From positions 12,779 to 76,778 of the forward strand of contig JAPLFP010000355.1 in the NCBI GenBank assembly GCA_026390585.1: DNA of 64,000 nt. Reading direction: 5' to 3'. A program made the translations under genes and the position numbers. Of this stretch, positions 160-14,805 are shown one piece after another; the first letter of the stretch is position 1; every line of letters starts with the position of its first letter. The stretch is from Ignavibacteriales bacterium. Its GTDB lineage: Bacteria > Bacteroidota > Ignavibacteria > UBA10030. The notes under the pieces were generated by a model. The model was given only the letters and a program-made list of their open reading frames with translations, made no database searches and was not told where the DNA came from.

Positions 160-210
160 TGCAGCAAAAACAGAAACCCCTTCAATGCACACAGTGCAAG
201 AAGGGGTTTT
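160..210 (-). terminator. rho-independent terminator downstream of serC (hairpin aaaccccttc...gaaggggttt followed by U-run on minus strand)
   Basis: 9-10 bp GC-rich inverted repeat at 174-209; on the minus strand it is followed by TCTGTTTTTGC; lies just 3' of the serC stop. Confidence 0.6.
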
Positions 211-2624: not shown

Positions 2625-3866
2625 ATGTCGACTGTACGTCCGTTCAAAGCATTTCGGCCCAAGCCTGAGTACGCGGGAGAGGTCGCAGCAAAACCGTACG
2701 ATGTGTTGAACTCGGATGAAGCACGCGTGGAAGTCAAAGGACATCCACTCTCGTTTCTCCACATCGGGAAGCCGGAGATTGATCTGGATCCGGGAATTGA
2801 TCTCCACGACTCAAAGGTTTATGCGAAGGGGAAGGAGAATCTTCGGAATCTCATCGACCAGAAGGTGCTCGTTGAGGATCCCGAACCTTATCTCTATGTG
2901 TATGCTCAGACCATGGAGGGGCGGACTCAATACGGAATCGTCGGATGCGCTTCGGTGGAAGAATATTGGAACGACACGATCAAGAAACATGAGCTCACTC
3001 GGAAGGATAAGGAAGAGGACCGCTGCAACCACGTCCGCGTGACAAACTCGCACTCCGGTCCAATCTTCCTCACCTACCCGGACAATGCCGAGATAAACGC
3101 CATCGTAGCAAAAGTCGTGAGTGCGCCTCCGGAAAATGATCATGTAGCAGCTGACGGTATCCGGCACCAGTCGTGGGTCGTCAACGACAAATCGACGATC
3201 CTGAAGCTCCAGCAGCTCTTTGCAGCAACTCCTCATCTGTACGTCGCTGATGGACACCACCGCTCTGCAGCAGCCGGCATCGTGGGACGCGAAAGAAAAC
3301 TGGCGAATCCGAAGCATCGGGGAGACGAAGAGTACAACTTCTTCCTCGCTGTTTGTTTTCCCGCGAGTCAACTGAGAATTCTCGACTACAACAGAGTGGT
3401 GAAGGACTTGAACGGACTTTCCACGCGAGAATTCGTCGACAAGCTGAAGGGGAAGTTTTCTGTGCAGCCCATTCAAGGCCGCCCGAGACTTTCAAACAAA
3501 GGCGAGTTCGGTTTGTACCTCGATGGCAAGTGGCATATCATGACTGCAGCAGAATCATTGCTCAAGGATAACGATCCCGTCGAGCGTCTCGATGTCGCGA
3601 TCCTGCAGAATCACTTGCTGGATCCCATCCTGGGAATCAAGGACCCTCGGACGGACAAGAGAGTTGACTTCGTCGGTGGAATACGCGGCATGGGTGAGCT
3701 CGAGAAGCGTGTTGACTCAGGTCAGATGAAAGTGGCGTTCAGCATGTTTCCCACATCGGTTCATGAACTCATCGCCATTGCCGACGCCGGCAAGATCATG
3801 CCTCCCAAGTCCACCTGGTTCGAACCGAAGCTGCGGGATGGGCTCTTTGTGCATTTTTTGGATTAG
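2625..3866 (+). CDS. DUF1015 family protein (conserved serA/serC-associated protein)
   Basis: N-terminus MSTVRPFKAFRP...KPYDV and central ADGHHRSAAA are characteristic of DUF1015; conserved synteny with serA in FCB-group bacteria. Confidence 0.7.
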   Translation: MSTVRPFKAFRPKPEYAGEVAAKPYDVLNSDEARVEVKGHPLSFLHIGKPEIDLDPGIDLHDSKVYAKGKENLRNLIDQKVLVEDPEPYLYVYAQTMEGRTQYGIVGCASVEEYWNDTIKKHELTRKDKEEDRCNHVRVTNSHSGPIFLTYPDNAEINAIVAKVVSAPPENDHVAADGIRHQSWVVNDKSTILKLQQLFAATPHLYVADGHHRSAAAGIVGRERKLANPKHRGDEEYNFFLAVCFPASQLRILDYNRVVKDLNGLSTREFVDKLKGKFSVQPIQGRPRLSNKGEFGLYLDGKWHIMTAAESLLKDNDPVERLDVAILQNHLLDPILGIKDPRTDKRVDFVGGIRGMGELEKRVDSGQMKVAFSMFPTSVHELIAIADAGKIMPPKSTWFEPKLRDGLFVHFLD

Positions 3867-3970: not shown

Positions 3971-4504
3971 ATGAAAGGAATTTTGACGGTATTGTTGACT
4001 TGCGCGCTTGTTGTGGGCGCTGCCGCTCAGCACGATATGCAGAAGATGACGAATGGCCCTGCCAAAGCCGTCGCCGTTGTCTATCCTGCAAAAGACAAGA
4101 CAGTGAAGGGTATCATTACCTTCACGCAGATGGAGAATGGTGTTAAGGTTGTTGCTCACCTCGAGGGTTTAACTCCGGGCAAGCATGGGTTCCATGTGCA
4201 TGAGTTCGGCGATTGCAGTGCCCCGGATGCGACCAGCGCGGGCGGCCATTTCAATCCTACACAGATGACACACGGCGCTCCTACCGATGCCATGCATCAC
4301 TCCGGCGACCTTGGAAACATTGTCGCTGACGACAAAGGAGTGGCGGATCTCGAGTGGCTCGATCCCATGATGCAGCTTTCCGGACCCCAGTCAATCATTG
4401 GCCGTGCGGTAATTGTACACGCTAAAGAGGATGATCTGAAGACTCAGCCTACAGGCAATGCTGGAGCGAGAGAGGCGTGTGGAGTAATCGGAGTAGCGAA
4501 ATAG
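3971..4504 (+). CDS. sodC: periplasmic Cu/Zn superoxide dismutase
   Basis: signal peptide plus HVHEFGDC, GGHFNP, HAKEDD, and ACGVIG motifs of SodC. Confidence 0.85.
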   Translation: MKGILTVLLTCALVVGAAAQHDMQKMTNGPAKAVAVVYPAKDKTVKGIITFTQMENGVKVVAHLEGLTPGKHGFHVHEFGDCSAPDATSAGGHFNPTQMTHGAPTDAMHHSGDLGNIVADDKGVADLEWLDPMMQLSGPQSIIGRAVIVHAKEDDLKTQPTGNAGAREACGVIGVAK

Positions 4505-5540: not shown

Positions 5541-6977
5541 TCACCACCCTAGCGCTTTCTTGACCCCTTCGGCATACGACGGATCAGCTTTCGCGAAATG
5601 CATAAGCTGCCGTTCGATGATTGCCTTCGGAACACCAACCATGGCGCCTGCAATTGCCTGATGCAGCCGCTTGCGTTGCTCGGGACCGAGAAGCCGGTAC
5701 AGGTCTCCTGCCTGAGTGAAATCATCATTTCCCATTCGATGATCGTACCGGTCGGCATCTCCCGATATCTTCAAAGGGGGTTCCTTAAATTTTGCATCCT
5801 CCTTCGGACCTCCCATGGTGTTCGGTTCGTAGTTGACGGACCCTCCACCGTTCCCGTCAGCCCGCATGACCCCATCGCGATAGTATGTATCCACGGAGAC
5901 GTGAGGACGATTCACCGGAAGACTTTCGTAGTTGACGCCGAGTCGGTGTCGGTGCGCGTCTGCGTACGATACGATGCGGAACTGCAGCATTTTGTCAGGG
6001 CTGTGACCGATTCCCGGTACAACATTCGCCGGAGAAAAGGCGGCCTGTTCAACTTCTGCAAAGTAGTTCTCCGGGTTCCGGTTCAATTCCATGATGCCGA
6101 CTTCGTGCAGGGGATATTCTTTGTGCGGCCACACTTTTGTGAGATCGAAAGGATTATACGGCGTCTTTTCCGCATCCGTCTCCGGCATCACCTGCACCAA
6201 TACCCGCCACTTTGGAAAGTCGCCGCGCGCAATTGCTTCGAAGAGATCTCGCTGATGGCTTTCCCTATCCTTCGCAATGATTGCCGCAGATTCTTCGTCA
6301 GTCATTGTCTTGATCCCCTGCAGCGTCTTAAAATGGAACTTGACCCAAAACCGCTGTTGCTTTGCATTGATGAAACTGTACGTGTGGCTTCCGTAGCCGT
6401 TCAAATGCCGATAGCTGCGCGGAAGACCACGATCTGAAAATAGGATCGTGACTTGATGCAGGCTTTCAGGAGACAACGACCAGAAGTCCCACATTGCAGT
6501 CGCACTCCGGAGGTTCGTCTTCGGGTCGCGCTTTTGTGTATGGATGAAATCCGGGAACTTGTACGGATCCCGGATGAAGAAGACCGGCGTGTTGTTCCCC
6601 ACCAGATCCCAGTTTCCTTCGTCTGTATAGAACTTGAGCGCAAATCCTCGGACATCCCGCTCCGCGTCGGCTGCACCTCGTTCACCAGCGACAGTGGAAA
6701 AGCGGAGGAAGCATTCCGTCTTCTTTCCCACCTTGGAAAAAATGCCGGCGGTTGTATACTTACTGATGTCCTTCGTCACTTTGAATACGCCATAGGCACC
6801 AGACCCCTTGGCGTGAACAACGCGTTCTGGAATTCGCTCACGATTGAAATGAGCGTGCTTCTCGAAAAGCTGCCAGTCTTGCACCAGCAACGGACCACGC
6901 GGTCCGGCTGTCAATGAGTTTTGGTTGTCTCCAACCGGAATCCCGGCCGAAGTGGTCAATTGCTTCTTCTTTGCCAT
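5541..6977 (-). CDS. katA: monofunctional heme catalase
   Basis: 478 aa; canonical catalase motifs ([22 protein letters not shown]-like, proximal-Tyr region RLFSYADAH variant). Confidence 0.9.
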
Positions 6978-7038: not shown

Positions 7039-9891
7039 TTATCTCTTCTCCAGCTCGTACGCCCGCGTCTTTCCCTTCTCGATCGCAGGAAGCCCTATCG
7101 TCATCCACACCGGAGCCGGCTGGCCCATCAGATAATGATCGAAGAACTGCAGCATACGAATAGACAGATCTTTTCTGTTTTTCCGCTGGACCAGATTGTG
7201 CGCTTCCCCGTTGTAGGTCAACATCCATACAGGTTTGTGCAACCTGCGCAACGCGGCGAACAACTCGATTCCCTGATACCACGGCACTGCTCCGTCTGCA
7301 TCGTTCGCCATGATCAGCAGAGGCGTCGTTATGTTCGGTGCACGGAAGAGTGCAGAGTTTTCCAGATACAGCATCGGCTTTTCCCATAGGGTGGCTCCGA
7401 TGCGACTTTGCTCCTTTTCATACTGCATCATCCGGCTCACGCCTGACTCCCAGCGAATGCCACCATAGGCGCTTGTCATGTTCGAAACGGGTGCTCCGGC
7501 TCCCGCCGCCGCGAACATGGTAGAGTTCGCAACCAAATATGCCACTTGATAGCCACCCCAGCTCTGTCCTTGAATTGCCACCTTCGAACTGTCAATGAAT
7601 CCCGCCTCAATCAACTTCAGGATTCCTGGCACAATGCAATCATACGCACTCTTGCCGGGATAGCCGACTCTGTACCGGATGTCTGGAACAAAGACAACGT
7701 AGCCGCGACTAGCAAAAAGGGCGATGTTCACTGTAGAGGCAGACGGCGCCGGCGGAATGTAACGATGGAGGAGATCAGAGTTTCTTTCATAGAAGTACGA
7801 TATCAGCGGATACTTCTTCTTCGGATCGAAGTTCTCCGGTTTGTAGAGAAGTCCGTCGATCGGCTTTCCATCTCCGGCGACCCACGACACGAGTTCAACA
7901 CTTCCCCAGAGATAGTCCTTCTGCTGGGGATTGATATCGCTGATGCGATCGAGATGAGTCATCGCCATGCCGGTCACGTACAGATCCGGGCACTCGCGGA
8001 AATTGCTCCGCGTCATGATCAGCTTGTCACTGTTTTCCGCCTTTTGAGGCGCCGAGAAAACGTATGGCTGCATGATGATCTTCCGTGGCGGGAGAGTCTC
8101 ATTCAGCTTCAAGGTGCAGAACCCTGATGACTTGTCAGTATAGGAGAACGCATCGAGAAGCACCTGAGCGTCAGAATTCAAAAACTTCTCGTCGCGATCG
8201 AGCCGTACATATCGCAGGCGGAGGTTCTCTTTGCGCCCCATGCGGGTGAGATTCTCTGCCGGACGTTTCCCTTCCGGATCGAGCCTCCAGATGTCATGAC
8301 GATCGTAAACGAAAACATCTTTGTCATCCTTTGTCCATCCCATCATCCCATGGGGCGAAGGATCACCGGGAACATCATTGAGCTCATTGTAGACTGGGAA
8401 TGGAACCGTTGCCGAAATGTTGACCGTTTTCTCCTTCTTTACCGAGTAGGCTCGCCAACATGTATCTTCTTCCGCATACCAGGTAATGTACTGAGCCCCA
8501 GGAGAAAGGGCTGCGCTCCCTTGAGTCTTCGTCGCAATTTTCTTTGCCTCTCCGGTAAGGAGGTCAACAAGATATACGTCGCGATAGACCGCATCCCATG
8601 ATATCAACTGGCGGTACGGAATTTCCGATATGCCGACGGCCATGTCTGCATTCCCTTCGATTCCCGCCGTGACGGTCGGCATATTTGGGTTCGCAAGCTG
8701 AACGAATTTCCTTTTCTTCAGATGAACTACTGCCGAATAGGAGCGCTTCTTTTCATTGTCGAGATTCTTCAACTGATGCGGCTGCAGATACGGGTCCTGC
8801 CAATTCCATATGTCAAGTTTGGCCGTCTCCTCATCATTCATCGTGGTGTCTTCGGGCATCGGCACCGGAGCAGTTCCAAAAAGGAGCCGCTTTCCGTCCT
8901 TGGAAAAGAAGATCCGACCGTTCTCGCTGACCAGCCATTTCTTCGGCATGCCCTGCGTCAGAGTATCGACAAGAACTTCGGCAGACTTCACATTCTCTGA
9001 CCAATAGTACAGCGAATAGTACCGTTGCTTGGCTTTGGAGGTATCCCGATCGGCAACGAAGGCGGCTTGTGTTCCCTCTTCATCGCAGACCACCCCTTTG
9101 AATTTCCCTTTTCCGACCACCAACGTATCGCAAAAGAACTTTGCAGTGTCGACGGCAGATTTCTCGGTATTGACGGTGAACACGCCTGCCTTGACAGTGC
9201 TGTCATTTCCCGTCGTTGCCACAATGAACCGCTTCCCGTTTTTCGAGAAGGCAAATTCACTGCCAAACGAGAAGCTGTATTCTTTGCCAGCAATCAGGTT
9301 CCGCAAGACAATCGTGGTTCCTTTCTCTTCTTTCTTTGGAGTTTCCTCGTCGGCCGGATCTGCGGCATCGTCCTTGTTCTCGAGGGCCTTCTTTCCCTTC
9401 TTCGTGGTGTCCGTTGGCTCCTTTTCATTTTGATAGGCAACCCAACCCGAGCCCTTCTCGGGGAGTTTGAATGACTTCACGCGAGGGATCTTTATGAGTT
9501 TCGACGTCGCCAGATTGTAGATGCCGAGTGAGTCCTTCGGCAGATCGTCCTCTTTCTTCTTTGCGATCTTCAGCTTCTTTACCTCCGCATAGAACGGCTT
9601 TATCGAGAACACGACGAAATCGGAGGCTTCGGCGATCTTCGCGTTCATGCCGCGCGGAATGGTGTCGTACTTCTTCGAGTCCGTATTGAAAACGACAAGA
9701 TGAGCATCCCCTTCCTGCGGTTCGACGGAATAGACAACCCACTTTCCATCATTCGAAATGGATTCACCATTGACTTTCTTCCAGTTGTCATAAACATCGT
9801 GATTCAGGGGCTTCTTTGCTGTCGTCTGGCAGAGCGCGGTTTGCATGAGAGCGGCTGCAAGCAAAGCAAGAACGATGGTGCAAGATTTCAT
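7039..9891 (-). CDS. secreted S9 family serine peptidase (prolyl oligopeptidase / dipeptidyl-peptidase-like with N-terminal beta-propeller)
   Basis: GQSWGGYQ catalytic-Ser motif in the C-terminal alpha/beta hydrolase domain; signal peptide begins at MKSCTIVLALLAAA (start 9891, GGAG RBS). Confidence 0.8.
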   Translation of the reverse strand: MKSCTIVLALLAAALMQTALCQTTAKKPLNHDVYDNWKKVNGESISNDGKWVVYSVEPQEGDAHLVVFNTDSKKYDTIPRGMNAKIAEASDFVVFSIKPFYAEVKKLKIAKKKEDDLPKDSLGIYNLATSKLIKIPRVKSFKLPEKGSGWVAYQNEKEPTDTTKKGKKALENKDDAADPADEETPKKEEKGTTIVLRNLIAGKEYSFSFGSEFAFSKNGKRFIVATTGNDSTVKAGVFTVNTEKSAVDTAKFFCDTLVVGKGKFKGVVCDEEGTQAAFVADRDTSKAKQRYYSLYYWSENVKSAEVLVDTLTQGMPKKWLVSENGRIFFSKDGKRLLFGTAPVPMPEDTTMNDEETAKLDIWNWQDPYLQPHQLKNLDNEKKRSYSAVVHLKKRKFVQLANPNMPTVTAGIEGNADMAVGISEIPYRQLISWDAVYRDVYLVDLLTGEAKKIATKTQGSAALSPGAQYITWYAEEDTCWRAYSVKKEKTVNISATVPFPVYNELNDVPGDPSPHGMMGWTKDDKDVFVYDRHDIWRLDPEGKRPAENLTRMGRKENLRLRYVRLDRDEKFLNSDAQVLLDAFSYTDKSSGFCTLKLNETLPPRKIIMQPYVFSAPQKAENSDKLIMTRSNFRECPDLYVTGMAMTHLDRISDINPQQKDYLWGSVELVSWVAGDGKPIDGLLYKPENFDPKKKYPLISYFYERNSDLLHRYIPPAPSASTVNIALFASRGYVVFVPDIRYRVGYPGKSAYDCIVPGILKLIEAGFIDSSKVAIQGQSWGGYQVAYLVANSTMFAAAGAGAPVSNMTSAYGGIRWESGVSRMMQYEKEQSRIGATLWEKPMLYLENSALFRAPNITTPLLIMANDADGAVPWYQGIELFAALRRLHKPVWMLTYNGEAHNLVQRKNRKDLSIRMLQFFDHYLMGQPAPVWMTIGLPAIEKGKTRAYELEKR

Positions 9892-10170
9892 AGGAACTCC
9901 AGACTGCAGGTTGTGGTGGATTGCTGACGGGACACAATACAGGACGCCGGTGTGAGACGATGATACCAATATTCTCGAATGCATTCAAATTGAATCTTGA
10001 GATGGCAACCCCCAGATGATGCGCAGCCCCAGGCAGGCGCATGCCCCTGACCAGCCCCATCGTTCAGAATGTACGATGTCGATCTCCCCCTTTGATTTTA
10101 CCCACCGTTTCCCTTAGATTAGCACCGTAGCGCCGAACCCCTCCATCCCATAGACTGGTCAAACCACGCA

Positions 10171-13100
10171 GTGACCACACCCAAAGAAATCGTCAAGCTT
10201 GTCGAGCGCTTCGACCACAACAGAGATCAATACCTCTCGGGCAAGTACAACGAGGCGCAACTCCGACAGGAATTTGTCAATCCTTTCTTCGCTGCTCTTG
10301 GCTGGGACATCGAGAACCGCCTGGGCTACGCCGAGCCATACAAGGAAGTCATACATGAAGATGCAATCAAGATCGGAAGCGCGACAAAGGCGCCAGACTA
10401 CGCATTTCGTATCGGGGGAACGCGAAAATTCTTCGTTGAAGCAAAGAATCCTTCCGTCAACCTCAAGGAAGACGCCACACCCGCCTTTCAGCTTCGCCGC
10501 TATGCCTGGTCCGCAAAACTGCCGCTGAGTATTCTAACAGACTTCGAAGAGTTCGTGATCTACGACTGTCGCACGAAGCCGCTCAGCAGCGACAAAGCCT
10601 CTACCGCTCGCGTGCAATACCTCACTTATAAAGAGTACATCCCGAAATGGGAGACGATTGCATCGGTCTTTTCGAAAGAGTCGGTCCTCAAGGGTTCATT
10701 CGACAAATATGCAGACTCTGCCAGGGGGAAGAAAGGCACGGCCGAGGTCGACGATGCGTTCCTGAAAGAGATTGAATCGTGGCGTGAGCTTCTGGCAAAG
10801 AACATCGCACTCCGCAACCCGAAACTCTCGCAGCCAGAGCTCAACTTCGCTGTGCAGCGTACCATTGACCGTATCATTTTTCTGCGCATTTGCGAGGACC
10901 GGGGAATCGAGCCCTACGGCCGACTCCAGTCGCTTGTCAACGGAGAGCACATCTATCGGCGACTGTACGAACAGTTCTACCGGGCAGATGAGAAATACAA
11001 TTCCGGACTTTTCCATTTCGAGGCGGAGAAAGGGCGGCCGGAGCTACTGGATGAGCTGACCCCCCACCTGCACATCGACGACAAGCCTCTCAAAGAGATT
11101 CTCGCGAACCTGTACTATCCCGATTCTCCGTACGAATTCTCCGTTCTTCCCGCAGACATACTCGGCCAGGTGTACGAGCAGTTTCTCGGCAAGGTCATAC
11201 GGCTTACCGCAGGACACCAGGCAAAGGTCGAAGAGAAGCCGGAAGTGAAGAAGGCCGGCGGTGTCTACTATACACCGACATACATTGTCGATTACATCGT
11301 CAAGAACACCGTCGGCAGACTCTTGGACCCCGAGCCCCCTCTCCTCGTGGGAGAGGGTGAGGTCGGCAAACGCAAAGCCGCGAAGCCCATCACCGGAGTT
11401 GGCAAGCTCATCGAACCCGAGCCCTCTCCCCCTTCACAAGGGGGAGACAAAGAGGCGGTCAGCAGCAAGCAACTCGCAAAGCCCTTGACACCAAAAGAAG
11501 CATCCAAGCTCCGCATACTCGATCCCGCGTGCGGCTCAGGCTCGTTCCTCATCGGGGCGTATCAATATCTTCTCAACTGGCACCGTGATTGGTACGAGAA
11601 GGACGGAGCGGAGAAACACGCAACCGGCAAGACCGCAGAGATCTTTCGCGGGCCAGGCGGAGAGTGGCGGCTCACGACAGCCGAGCGCAAGCGCATACTT
11701 CTCAACAACATTTATGGCGTTGACATCGATTCGCAAGCTGTGGAGGTAACAAAACTCTCCCTCCTCCTGAAGGTGCTTGAAGGCGAGAACGAGCAGACAA
11801 TTAGCCAGCAGCTGAAGATGTTCCATGAGCGTGCACTCCCCGACCTCGGCAGCAACATCAAGTGCGGTAATTCGCTCATCGGTCCCGATTTCTACGAAGG
11901 CAAACAATTGTCGTTGCTCGATGACGAAGAAAAAAACCGGATAAATGTGTTCGACTGGAAGAGCGAGTTCAAGGAGATCATGGATGCGGGTGGGTTTGAT
12001 GCGGTGATTGGGAATCCGCCGTACGGCGTACCGTTCTCGCCACAAGAGTTAGGCTACCTGAGCGTGAAATACAAGAAAGCCGCGAAATTCCCAGACAGCT
12101 ACTGTTACTTCATTATTAAATCAGTTGATATCCTACGTTTAAAAGGCGCGGTCTCGATGATCGTGCCCAACACCTTCTGTGATTTGGAAAATTGCGACGA
12201 TTTTCGCAAATGGCTCTTGACAGAATGCATGCTTGGAGAAATATGGCAAACCGGCTGGGCTTTCAAATCGGCGATAGTCGATACGTTGGTATTTCGAATC
12301 ACGAGGCAGACGGCTCGTGGAGCCTTAGAAGTCACAATAAAAATCGGAAACAGGAGCTACAAAAGGCTCTTGCAGGAATTTACCGAAAACGATCTCGCAA
12401 AGATAGACTATCGCAACACTCCTGACAATCAAATCATATTACGAAAAGTCACGAAGGACAGCATTCAGTGTGGTTCGCTCTGCACCATAAAAGCTGGTGT
12501 AAAAATGTATGAGAAGGGGAAGGGAATTCCCCCGCAAAGCGACAAGACCTTACAGGAGAGGCCCTATTCAAAGAAGGGCAAACAGCCGAAGGGCTGGAAG
12601 CCTCTATATAGAGGCGAGCATGTATCGCGGTATGCCTTGAGCACCACTGATGAATTCGTAGAGTATGGACCATGGCTTGCGGCTCCTCGCAGCGTCGAAT
12701 TGTTCGCGGGCCAAAAGATACTGATGAGAAGAACTGACGACAAGCTCCGAGCATGCCTCGAGTCCGATTCCGCAATTTGCGTCAACTCATGCCATGTGAT
12801 ACGACTGAAAGAGGGTTCGCCCGGTTCGTATTCACCTCATTATCTGCTCGGAATTTTCAACTGCAGATTATTGCAGCGCATCTTCGAACTGCAAAACCCT
12901 CAAATGGTTCAGAAGGTTTTCGCGGAAATAAAGGTGATTTATGTTGAGAGGCTACCTATCCGTGCAATCGACTTCTCCAATCCGTCCGACAAATCCCGTC
13001 ACGACAAGATGGTGCAGTTGGTTGAGCAAATGCTCTCGTTGCACAAGCAGCTTCCCGCGGCGAAGACGGAGCAAGAGAAGACTGTGATACAGCGGCAGAT

Positions 13101-13185
13101 CGAAGCAACGGATAAACAGATTGATGCATTGGTTTACGAGTTGCATGATCTAACAAAAGAAGAGATCGCCATCGTCGAAGGATAA
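10171..13185 (+). CDS. Type IIG restriction-modification enzyme (fused REase - N6-adenine MTase - TRD, Eco57I/MmeI/PglX-like)
   Basis: GTG start; DPACGSGSFL (motif I), IGNPPYG (motif IV), and a C-terminal YELHDLTKEEIAIVEG tail typical of this family; no separate MTase or BREX partner genes nearby. Confidence 0.8.
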   Translation: MTTPKEIVKLVERFDHNRDQYLSGKYNEAQLRQEFVNPFFAALGWDIENRLGYAEPYKEVIHEDAIKIGSATKAPDYAFRIGGTRKFFVEAKNPSVNLKEDATPAFQLRRYAWSAKLPLSILTDFEEFVIYDCRTKPLSSDKASTARVQYLTYKEYIPKWETIASVFSKESVLKGSFDKYADSARGKKGTAEVDDAFLKEIESWRELLAKNIALRNPKLSQPELNFAVQRTIDRIIFLRICEDRGIEPYGRLQSLVNGEHIYRRLYEQFYRADEKYNSGLFHFEAEKGRPELLDELTPHLHIDDKPLKEILANLYYPDSPYEFSVLPADILGQVYEQFLGKVIRLTAGHQAKVEEKPEVKKAGGVYYTPTYIVDYIVKNTVGRLLDPEPPLLVGEGEVGKRKAAKPITGVGKLIEPEPSPPSQGGDKEAVSSKQLAKPLTPKEASKLRILDPACGSGSFLIGAYQYLLNWHRDWYEKDGAEKHATGKTAEIFRGPGGEWRLTTAERKRILLNNIYGVDIDSQAVEVTKLSLLLKVLEGENEQTISQQLKMFHERALPDLGSNIKCGNSLIGPDFYEGKQLSLLDDEEKNRINVFDWKSEFKEIMDAGGFDAVIGNPPYGVPFSPQELGYLSVKYKKAAKFPDSYCYFIIKSVDILRLKGAVSMIVPNTFCDLENCDDFRKWLLTECMLGEIWQTGWAFKSAIVDTLVFRITRQTARGALEVTIKIGNRSYKRLLQEFTENDLAKIDYRNTPDNQIILRKVTKDSIQCGSLCTIKAGVKMYEKGKGIPPQSDKTLQERPYSKKGKQPKGWKPLYRGEHVSRYALSTTDEFVEYGPWLAAPRSVELFAGQKILMRRTDDKLRACLESDSAICVNSCHVIRLKEGSPGSYSPHYLLGIFNCRLLQRIFELQNPQMVQKVFAEIKVIYVERLPIRAIDFSNPSDKSRHDKMVQLVEQMLSLHKQLPAAKTEQEKTVIQRQIEATDKQIDALVYELHDLTKEEIAIVEG

Positions 13186-13386
13186 CCGCGCTCTATCCCC
13201 TCCCATTGACCCCCTCCTGCCTTCCCCTGTGAGGGGGAGTGTCTGCTTCGTCGACACCTGCCTTGCTCTGTAAAAAATCGGAACCACCACCAGTCCTCCA
13301 GCGAATTCTGCATTGCAGTTGAAGACAATTCTCCCGTCCTTGAACGGCATTCGAAACTCACTTGAAGGATGGAGAGGCAACGATAG

Positions 13387-14805
13387 ATGGTTGGGAGTAA
13401 TTTTGGGGGTGGCAAGCACATCGTTGCATCCTTCCTTCTCGTCGTATTGACCCTCCTCGTTGCCAGCGAAAGCAGCGCTCAGGTTCCCCTTCGCCAGAAG
13501 ATCGGCCAGATGGTGATGGTCACCATGACAGGCGACTCTCTTGACGGGAAAGCTTCACCCAGCGTCGACACCATGAAATCTGATCTCGCCAACGGCTTCG
13601 TCGGCGGGGTCATCATGTTCACCTGGAGCAACAACCTCAGGAATCCGCAGCAAATTGCCCATCTCACCAAGAAACTCCAGGAACAATCCTCTACTCCGCT
13701 TTTCATTTGCATCGACGAAGAAGGAGGGCAGGTCGCCCGACTGAGCGCCGCAAATGGATTTGCCAATACCCCATCAGAGTTCCAGCTGGGAAGCGCAAAC
13801 AACGAGTCGAACACCAGGGCAACGGCGTCAACCATGGCCGGGTGGTTTATGCAAACCGGACTCAACCTCAACCTGGCACCCGTCGTTGACGTCAATGTCA
13901 ATCCCAATAGTCCGGCGATCGGAGCACTCGGTCGCAGTTTCTCGTCGAATCCCGACATCGTCGCTGCCAATGCATCCTGGTTCATCGATGAGTTTCACAA
14001 GAAGAACATCCTTACAACATTGAAGCACTTCCCAGGTCATGGCAGCGCTGCGACGGACTCGCATCTTGGACTCGTCGACATCACCTATACGTGGTCGGAC
14101 AAAGAGCTCACTCCGTATCGACAGCTTCTGAGCGCAGGAAAAGTTGACGCGATCATGACTGCGCATGTGTTCAATGCCAAACTCGATAGCCTCTATCCGG
14201 CCACTCTCTCGCAGAAAATCCTCACAGGGATCTTGAGGAATCAGCTTGGTTACAATGGCGTTGTTGTAAGCGATGACATGAGTATGCAAGCCATTGTCTC
14301 ATACTACGGGTTTGATGATGCAGTCACACTTGCCGTGAATGCCGGCCTCGATATCCTTCTCTATACCAGCAACCTGCACGACGCCAGTTCTTCTCGGGCA
14401 AGACACGTCGTTGACCTCATCGAAAGAAAAGTCAAGGACGGGACGATCGACGCGAAGAGGATCGATGATTCCTACAACAGGGTCATGGCACTCAAGCGCC
14501 GCTCTATCGCCAGCGGAGTGGAGTTTGCGCTCTCGGCAGTGCCCGATCACTTCATTCTGAGAAACTATCCAAACCCATTCAATCCCTCCACAACGATTGC
14601 CATTCAGATCCCGCAGCGAGAGCACGTCAGTCTGAAGATCTTTGACCTGCTAGGCAGGGAGATTGTCACCCTCCTGGATGACAATGCCCCCGCTGGAACC
14701 AGGCTCGTCACGTGGAATGCGTCAAATCTCGCCTCTGGGATCTATATCGCACAGCTGAGAACCAGCCGGGAGATTCACAACCTCAAGATGGTGCTATTGA
14801 AGTAG
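13387..14805 (+). CDS. glycoside hydrolase family 3 beta-N-acetylhexosaminidase-like protein with T9SS C-terminal sorting domain
   Basis: KHFPGHGSAATDSH GH3 motif; C-terminal NYPNPFNPSTTI...GIYIAQL Por-secretion tail. Confidence 0.75.
   Translation: MVGSNFGGGKHIVASFLLVVLTLLVASESSAQVPLRQKIGQMVMVTMTGDSLDGKASPSVDTMKSDLANGFVGGVIMFTWSNNLRNPQQIAHLTKKLQEQSSTPLFICIDEEGGQVARLSAANGFANTPSEFQLGSANNESNTRATASTMAGWFMQTGLNLNLAPVVDVNVNPNSPAIGALGRSFSSNPDIVAANASWFIDEFHKKNILTTLKHFPGHGSAATDSHLGLVDITYTWSDKELTPYRQLLSAGKVDAIMTAHVFNAKLDSLYPATLSQKILTGILRNQLGYNGVVVSDDMSMQAIVSYYGFDDAVTLAVNAGLDILLYTSNLHDASSSRARHVVDLIERKVKDGTIDAKRIDDSYNRVMALKRRSIASGVEFALSAVPDHFILRNYPNPFNPSTTIAIQIPQREHVSLKIFDLLGREIVTLLDDNAPAGTRLVTWNASNLASGIYIAQLRTSREIHNLKMVLLK

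Follow-up and report, generated by a model that had tools for sequence, protein, structure and literature searches.

Repetitive extragenic palindromes (REPs) are short GC-rich palindromes found mostly outside genes, just 3′ of them, and grouped into GTAG- and CGTC-tagged superfamilies, whose families are species-specific or common to only some species (Di Nocera et al. 2013, PMC3733652). At times they lie whole inside open reading frames (ORFs), singly or as dimers, where they code for 20-30 amino acids (aa), for example in uvrA and in the genes of tRNA-synthetase and other nucleic-acid enzymes (PMC3733652). Rickettsia palindromic elements (RPEs) are selfish palindromic DNA found in frame in many unrelated Rickettsia genes, at sites compatible with the protein fold, and are translated as extra peptides (PMC10969869). 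The locus described here is a type IIG restriction-modification (RM) gene in a 64-kb stretch of an Ignavibacteriales contig (JAPLFP010000355.1, assembly GCA_026390585.1; the whole stretch is hereafter called the window), which carries a segment with two C-rich/G-rich hairpins between motifs X and I of its methyltransferase. What it adds to in-frame insertion of the REP or RPE kind, which is already known, is a recurrent landing site and an untagged, cross-phylum palindrome family; nothing specific was found in the literature on repeat insertions in type IIG enzymes or on permissive-loop hotspots.

The reading favoured here, to which a probability of about 0.8 is given, is that the segment is selfish palindromic DNA, of the REP kind or of the kind of miniature transposable elements with inverted repeats (MITEs), which landed in coding sequence and survived in frame. 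The features on which the argument turns are the following, with the evidence for each in brackets.

10171-13185, + strand: intact type IIG RM gene encoding 1004 aa (ORF list, Pfam, invariant motifs).
11260-11325, + strand: host codons for motif X and the adjoining helix, GVYYTPTYIVDYIVKNTVGRLL, residues 364-385, directly 5′ of the insertion site (homolog spacing; AlphaFold2 helix 370-385, high confidence).
11311-11397, + strand: unit 1, consisting of duplicated host codons VGRLLDPEP, a hairpin core and then GEVGKRKAAKPIT (direct-repeat families D1-D3; DNA alignment with homologous locus L081).
11326-11487, + strand: insert, residues 386-439, 54 codons in place of the three-residue loop (E-G/N-K) of most homologs (homolog spacing, AlphaFold2).
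11337-11357, no strand assigned: hairpin 1, CCCTCTCC-TCGTG-GGAGAGGG, 8 bp, perfect (sequence; apparently the outer-stem-only form of the element family).
11398-11493, + strand: unit 2, consisting of a second copy of the host-like codons, VGKLIEPEP, a hairpin core and then DKEAVSSKQLAKPLT (direct repeats, homolog comparison).
11414-11460, no strand assigned: member of a ~45-nucleotide (nt) palindromic family, with an inner hairpin at 11425-11447 followed by a 3′ outer arm, AGAGGCGGT (covariance model R1, 32.9 bits, E 1.5e-5).
11488-11541, + strand: host sequence again, TPKEASKLRILDPACGSG, covering motif I and the stretch leading up to it (homolog spacing; modelled strand 449-451).

Relative to homologs, the linker of the window enzyme is an insertion. 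Counted from the GVYYTP of motif X up to the LDPACGSG of motif I, it measures 85 residues, against exactly 34 in ~60% of 119 homologs, which corresponds to a net gain of 51 codons over a basal state that reads ...GKLLE(G/N)KTPKQAAKLRILDPACGSG. Spacings of more than 37 residues occur in 44 of the 119 homologs and at the same loop in 20 of 78 metagenome loci encoding relatives; in CamA, a distant relative whose structure has been solved, the loop is short, with ~11 residues from the motif X helix to motif I against 66 in the window enzyme. A first-pass annotation of the DNA had quoted the peptide correctly and had proposed an in-frame insert between motifs X and I, which this spacing and the status of 34 residues as the commonest state support; its estimate of a ~70-codon segment was too high, the true extent being residues 386-439.

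The insert is translated in frame as a loop rich in P, G, E, K and S that is predicted to be disordered, and the catalytic signatures of the protein are all intact despite it. The domain order is an N-terminal PD-(D/E)XK nuclease, a gamma-class N6-adenine methyltransferase and a C-terminal TaqI-like specificity domain, with Pfam matches to HSDR_N (residues 25-136), N6_Mtase/MmeI_Mtase (mid-protein), Eco57I (512-693) and TaqI_C (810-930). Across 116 homologs D76/E90/K92, D451-G457 and N615-P617 are invariant and Y618 (of NPPY) is nearly so. By these domains and motifs the product is an Eco57I/MmeI-like type IIG RM enzyme, with predicted cleavage activity, and a metagenome-assembled genome of Ignavibacteriales has a protein record identical to it.

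Across the enzyme family the motif X/motif I loop has been colonised by palindromic repeats of no fewer than six unrelated families. Homologs beyond the 34-residue state have inserts of 3-174 aa at this loop, and in the 116-sequence alignment ~40 sequences have at least 8 extra residues there, while no other site in the nuclease and methylase parts exceeds ~8 sequences with such inserts. The insert peptides form mutually unrelated groups (SPPSQGGDKEGV; PPLLxGEGKGEV; VILNEAKRSEESA; VILSPVGKE...DGTKDL; NPSPARRGVGGEV), to which VIPAEAGIQ...LDSRFHGND and GADPRVCP...HRVAPT can be added, and at the DNA level each group is a long hairpin. Tagged REPs of the GTAG type lie in the linkers of L011, L015, L025, L043 and L069, and long hairpins in those of L053 and L022. 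Several of these elements recur close by: the GTAG palindrome of the L025 linker has a second copy (~5734) just past the RM stop codon, beside a gene resembling REP-associated tyrosine transposases (RAYTs), the 100-nt hairpin of the L053 linker is found three times more along its contig, and the first element of the L082 linker is present twice more between genes, all within 11 kb. The L082 element is a separate MITE-like palindrome of ~55 nt (GTAAAAAGTCCGACATTT...AAATGTCGGACTTTTC), with three copies in those 11 kb (5775-5835, ~3975-4025 and ~9350-9400), of which the one in the RM linker is flanked by a duplicated host-coding sequence, AGAATACGGTGGGA, and the two intergenic ones are without the duplication.

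The convergence of unrelated elements on one loop could also be a property of the DNA. Tentatively, and in a manner compatible with the favoured reading, the site might be a true DNA-level hotspot of insertion or recombination, at which a resident hairpin attracts hairpin-seeking elements or breaks in replication, and repair with diverged alleles makes nested or tandem structures, structural tolerance alone being insufficient to account for the accumulation of inserts. In all 15 of the closest homologs the insert is framed by the same scaffold, xPExxP...KPLTPKEASKL, around differing cores, linkers made up of two different elements are seen in the window, L082, L009 and P0054, and the upstream host-codon duplicates of the window and L082 are ~75% identical, a value typical of divergence between alleles; all this speaks for a hotspot. 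However, a filter of structural tolerance predicts REP-like peptides in other permissive places as well, and in some homologs such peptides are held by three other methylase-domain loops (after window residues 493, 576 and 605), in line with that expectation. Peptides seen in the three other loops include VGLPSPAAGRGVGGEG, SSPRHCEERSDAAIS, GLLVGADPGVCP...HGCAPT and PSPQGGGRGEV. Hairpin or model matches were also noted inside the RM genes of L018, L036, L052, L061 and L078, downstream of the linker, at estimated sites whose distances fit the same three loops.

In the favoured reading it is selection that would shape this distribution: insertions elsewhere in the gene would be purged, so that independent, unrelated elements accumulate at one loop and more rarely at three others. 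Two related units, each around a C-rich/G-rich hairpin, now occupy what is otherwise a surface loop of three residues joining the motif X helix to the first methyltransferase strand, and their arms are read as Pro/Ser/Leu and Gly/Glu/Arg, stop-free in every frame. An insertion of such DNA with a length divisible by three would only extend a flexible, solvent-exposed loop and leave the catalytic motifs intact. An AlphaFold2 model made with the family alignment (mean predicted local distance difference test score (pLDDT) 87, predicted template modelling score 0.82) agrees with this picture. No secondary structure is modelled for residues 386-440, which follow the motif X helix (370-385) and precede a short helix and strand (441-451) leading into motif I, and the only segment with pLDDT below 50 is 394-432; the insert is thus predicted to sit in a surface loop that tolerates extra residues, and its role as a linker would be neutral.

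In homolog L204 the 3′ arm of the hairpin has decayed, and at L035 (1100-1309) an in-frame stop codon lies inside the linker insert (CHSERSEESHSSTGNRKS*IVNRKS), so that the hairpin is not universally kept and insertions can also kill the gene; the L035 gene was probably killed in this way, or else contains a sequencing error.

At the nucleotide level the window insert consists of two diverged units in tandem, ~87-96 nt each. The motif CCCGAGCCC occurs at 11329 and again at 11416, a spacing of 87 nt, a 34-nt direct repeat (11311-11344 and 11398-11431) is 76% identical between the units, and each unit has its own copy of upstream host codons (VGRLLDPEP or VGKLIEPEP) and of downstream AKP(I/L)T. 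The 22-nt repeat at the start of both units is present a third time, more weakly (73%), at 11505-11526, in the host codons SKLRILDP before motif I, so that the host sequence may itself provide short direct repeats around the insertion site. Each unit is also found without the other: unit 1 alone occupies the linker of homolog P0043/L081, unit 2 alone those of homologs P0038 and P0041/L204, and unit 2 matches the second unit of P0073 (L082). Hairpin 1 is a weak match to the covariance model (11335-11359, E 0.7-0.9), and its type was found again in 11 of 201 fetched loci. Hairpin 2, TCTCCCCCTT-CAC-AAGGGGGAGA, at 11425-11447, has a perfect 10-bp stem and a 3-nt loop. Most of this had been anticipated in the first-pass annotation, with small corrections to be made: its two degenerate tandem units are real, at somewhat more than the ~85 bp given, hairpin 1 has the sequence and the 8-bp stem described and lies one position downstream of 11336-11356, and hairpin 2, correctly placed, has a longer stem than the 8 bp reported.

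Could such hairpins simply be a by-product of Pro/Gly-rich codons in a GC-rich stretch, the linker being flexible, peculiar to the lineage, otherwise ordinary and evolved in place? The peptide is of low complexity and predicted to be disordered, and the local rise in GC is modest (0.63 against ~0.54), both of which such a linker would share. Yet the pattern of hairpin 1 is expected only 0.01 times per 64 kb, L082, with a protein that is 56% identical overall (BLASTP; 65-80% in the segments compared), has the 23-nt hairpin of unit 2 without a single change, and across phyla hairpin and conserved flanks recur both between genes and inside unrelated ones, so that evolution in place is scarcely credible. 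Hairpins of at least 6 bp with pyrimidine/purine arms occupy 10 registers in the window where shuffles give 1.3 (a ~8-fold excess), and seven of the ten registers fall in the two linker hairpins.

A regulatory role deserves to be weighed against the same structures. Both stems pair perfectly (8/8 and 10/10 pairs) though their flanks have diverged, and they do so with stems that differ in sequence between the units, which is what might be expected if the hairpins were a selected device in the mRNA or DNA of the RM gene, be it a site of pausing or attenuation, an element that affects RNA stability between the nuclease half and the methylase half, or a switch for phase variation. Nevertheless, this is very unlikely. 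Both hairpins fold as predicted, but the 141 nt of 11320-11460 are only modestly more stable than shuffles (z ~-1.9), and a scan for sigma-70 promoters and intrinsic terminators detected neither a T-run nor a + strand terminator at these two hairpins or at a third one past the stop codon (see below). Most homologs are without the insert, the 3′ arm has decayed in L204, the same element occurs in unrelated housekeeping genes, and a product truncated or restarted at the insert would miss motif X or the nuclease. As for phase variation, there are no simple-sequence repeats in the linker and the units are only 76% alike. Tandem Repeats Finder made no call there, because units of 76% identity are too diverged for it, and slipped-strand phase variation was rejected on the ground that the program does not call them. 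The suggestion in the first-pass annotation that the segment might be a hypermutable or recombinogenic module is for these reasons (no simple repeats, diverged units, a decayed hairpin in one homolog) unsupported as a function, whereas its preferred view of a REP/MITE-like element tolerated as a linker is borne out by homologs, by copies elsewhere and by folding.

Unit 2 belongs to a family of palindromes of ~45 nt, ACCCCCTCT-n3-TCTCCCCCTT-n3-AAGGGGGAGA-n3-AGAGGGGGT, with 19 pairs in 45 nt. When one genome per species was scanned with the pattern TCTCCCCCTTNNNAAGGGGGAGA, from which the flanks were left out, at least 119 genomic stretches matched against ~0.5 expected. The matches listed include Patescibacteria, Dehalococcoidia, Binatia, Gammaproteobacteria, Planctomycetes, Spirochaetes and Ignavibacteria, and among them some genomes have several copies (six loci in CAWINI01, five in JABMQE01). 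Although not part of the pattern, the flanks are conserved: of 125 copies, 100 have ACCCCCTCT on the upstream side, AGAGGGGGT on the downstream side, or both, where the background is 6 in 2380. The consensus, ACCCCCTCTnnnTCTCCCCCTTnnnAAGGGGGAGAnnnAGAGGGGGT, contains neither a GTAG nor a CGTC tag, and the covariance model R1 mentioned above was built from 19 full copies. A search of Rfam 15 with window 10000-13500 and with the element in six loci gave no meaningful family match. The hairpin is carried by nine viral contigs only, which gives no sign of phages as main carriers.

All six frames of the element are free of stop codons, and as a palindrome it reads alike on the other strand. Long ORFs contain 35 of the 125 copies, with the frames used equally (12/12/11), and depending on the frame the hairpin is translated as SPPxxGGD, xLPLxKGE or xSPxxRGR. 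Hosts of in-frame copies confirmed by Pfam are a U32 peptidase (three copies), IleRS, CysRS, UvrA, a GH116 hydrolase, an iron hydrogenase, a DUF255 thioredoxin-like protein and a hybrid histidine kinase from an Ignavibacteriales genome. The U32 peptidase of Candidatus Brocadia (L095, 4293-7196) has three separate in-frame copies of the SPPSQGGD type. Outer and inner arms mirror each other in the consensus (ACCCCCTCT with TCTCCCCCT, and GGGGGAGA with AGAGGGGG; window 11414-11460), making the arms homopyrimidine/homopurine mirror repeats of the kind able to form intramolecular triplex DNA, and ~60% of copies have only one outer arm.

It is tempting to see in this an undescribed pan-bacterial mobile family, a C5/G5 mirror-palindrome adapted to genes, for which, as for other hairpin elements, the loop would be a preferred landing pad, a hairpin already in place drawing in the next; the site would then be an active hotspot of length evolution instead of a loop that passively tolerates inserts. 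About a quarter of the sampled copies lie in frame in conserved enzymes, the family has no GTAG or CGTC tag and no RAYT found with it, and the element is nearly unchanged in sequence from Patescibacteria to Ignavibacteria and Gammaproteobacteria. As a whole, so far-reaching a view is doubtful.

Several points also weigh against the favoured reading of the segment as selfish DNA. No transposase for the palindrome family was found in the fetched loci, and tblastn for RAYT-like genes found none in the window. Outside the RM gene there is no significant family copy in the 64 kb, so that dispersal in the source genome is unsupported within the window. The duplication of host codons is not general to these elements, and the reading leaves it unaccounted for. 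The 3′ tail of the units, GGTCGGMAAACGC, is held in common with the L082 unit, such that part of the similarity may reflect common descent in the gene family rather than independent insertion. Lastly, the neutrality of the loop is a prediction from the structural model.

With regard to a mobiliser, RAYT-like genes lie directly 3′ of homologous RM genes at three independent loci (L081 5851-6426, L203 13237-13692 and L025 5838-6209). At L025 the REP beside the transposase gene is the GTAG REP of the RM linker, and another RAYT-like gene, at L133, is likewise accompanied by GTAG-type REPs. Having been found, in the fetched loci searched, to be tied to GTAG-type REPs, RAYTs near homologs were rejected as mobilisers of the unit-2 family. 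The RAYT-like genes hold GTAG/GGGGCG-type REPs of their own in frame just after the HUH motif, one in L081 (~6150-6180) and two in L133 (~3755-3830). A further association was noted in homolog P0090 (1363 aa, protein only), in which a Y1/HUH transposase-like domain (PF01797, residues 787-885, motif LPDHVHAML) stands in frame in the loop before GGFDA, flanked by repeat-like peptides (QGVATPCL...), in addition to a 174-aa insert at the linker site; judging from the protein sequence, with regions ~760-900 and 386-570 concerned, the RM gene here seems to contain an entire RAYT-plus-REP unit that is read through.

With regard to copies in the window, the covariance model finds across the 64 kb one significant family member (unit 2) and three marginal ones, and searches of the window for more copies of the insert with 12- and 13-mers gave chance-level single matches only. 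The source genome is not visibly rich in the element, and the expectation of further copies is borne out in other genomes, with the stretches counted above, and not in the window. Since there is a single significant copy, the units may have come with the gene, not by recent transposition in the source genome. One of the marginal matches lies close to the RM gene.

13208-13241, no strand assigned: probable degenerate extragenic family member, ACCCCCTCC-tgc-CTTCCCCT-gtg-AGGGGGAG, 23 nt past the stop codon (sequence; marginal model match, E 0.33).

Its hairpin, cccct-gtg-agggg, is the third one reported in the first-pass annotation; it is real, at 13224-13236 rather than 13225-13238 (or at 13221-13239 if counted as 8 pairs including one T-G), and weak. 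It begins ~36 nt 3′ of the stop codon, and the upstream ACCCCCTCC (13209-13217) gives it the 5′-arm-plus-hairpin form; the E value of 0.33 is not significant by itself. Having no T-run, it is not a canonical terminator. At window 175-208 there is a weak, outer-stem-only match (AACCCCTTCTT-13 nt-TGAAGGGGTT, E 0.25), which lies under no listed ORF of at least 60 aa and ends 68 nt before the nearest one (276-1364, - strand).

The history of the locus sheds some light on the tandem. An S9 peptidase upstream, on the opposite strand, is common to the window, L081 (75% identical), L202, L203 and the P0038 contig, which indicates that the RM gene is resident in the Ignavibacteriales lineage. The linkers at these syntenic positions differ: the window has units 1 and 2, L081 unit 1, the P0038 contig unit 2, and L202 and L203 other repeat types. 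The units may be imagined to have travelled with the gene rather than to have transposed recently in the source genome. The tandem would have arisen by illegitimate or unequal recombination between unit-1-only and unit-2-only alleles, possibly provoked by the hairpins, or alternatively by duplication of a host-plus-insert unit, and one of these two routes is the most likely origin. Independently of the window, L082 has duplicated NTVGxLL around a different element, and the host-codon duplicates (VGxLL in the window, NTVGxLL in L082) hint at a rearrangement-prone site. The duplicated host codons were considered as the target-site duplication of the element and rejected: no such repeats accompany the L082 element where it lies between genes, in two copies, which means that these are not ordinary target-site duplications.

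Elsewhere in the gene, the C-terminal third (12271-13185) has a different record. The closest homologs are 78-91% identical to the window protein over residues 1-385 and 66-79% over 447-700, and mostly 35-67%, often as partial matches, in the specificity domain, where one local match of 80 residues reaches 78%. The low identity of this domain compared with the rest of the protein suggests domain swapping, i.e. that specificity domains may be exchanged among members of the RM family.

The locus is a concrete case of selfish palindromic DNA lengthening a protein without breaking it, in which one short loop of a defence enzyme has, in different lineages, taken up repeats of six or more unrelated families, with inserts of 3 to 174 residues. 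For annotation, this means that low-complexity 'PSPP..GGD/GEG' stretches in conserved enzymes can be read as footprints of repeat elements, not as functional linkers, and for engineering, that the loop is marked out as a naturally validated site at which type IIG enzymes could take up foreign peptides. For the biology of mobile elements, a palindrome that is untagged, open in all frames and spread across phyla raises the questions of what mobilises it and what has conserved its sequence.

How, then, does the window insert compare with the systems described so far? It resembles REPs in that its stems, of 8 bp and 10 bp, belong to short GC-rich palindromes lying in frame in an ORF, and true GTAG REPs occupy the same loop in several RM homologs; unlike REPs, the window elements lack both the GTAG and the CGTC tag, no RAYT accompanied them in the fetched loci, and their family spans many phyla. 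As with RPEs, the insert stands in frame in a conserved gene and is absent from orthologs, those in syntenic positions having other linker content, but at ~45 nt and C5/G5-rich it is set apart by length and composition from RPEs as described, which are ~100-150 bp long and confined to Rickettsia. With MITEs it would share small size, non-autonomy, inverted-repeat termini, multiple copies and the possibility of in-frame fusions, in contrast to which neither a defined short target-site duplication nor a parental insertion sequence was identified; its direct repeats differ from a fresh target duplication in that they comprise ~27 nt of host codons with an identity of 76-78%, and the whole element is palindromic. 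As regards the host, the window enzyme has motifs X, I and IV in common with Eco57I/MmeI type IIG enzymes, with CamA (PDB 7LNI) and with PglX/BrxX of BREX (8C45, 9EWZ), shares the nuclease-methylase-specificity order of the Eco57I/MmeI type IIG enzymes, and departs from CamA in the length of the very loop, leading from the motif X helix to motif I, in which the palindromes have settled.

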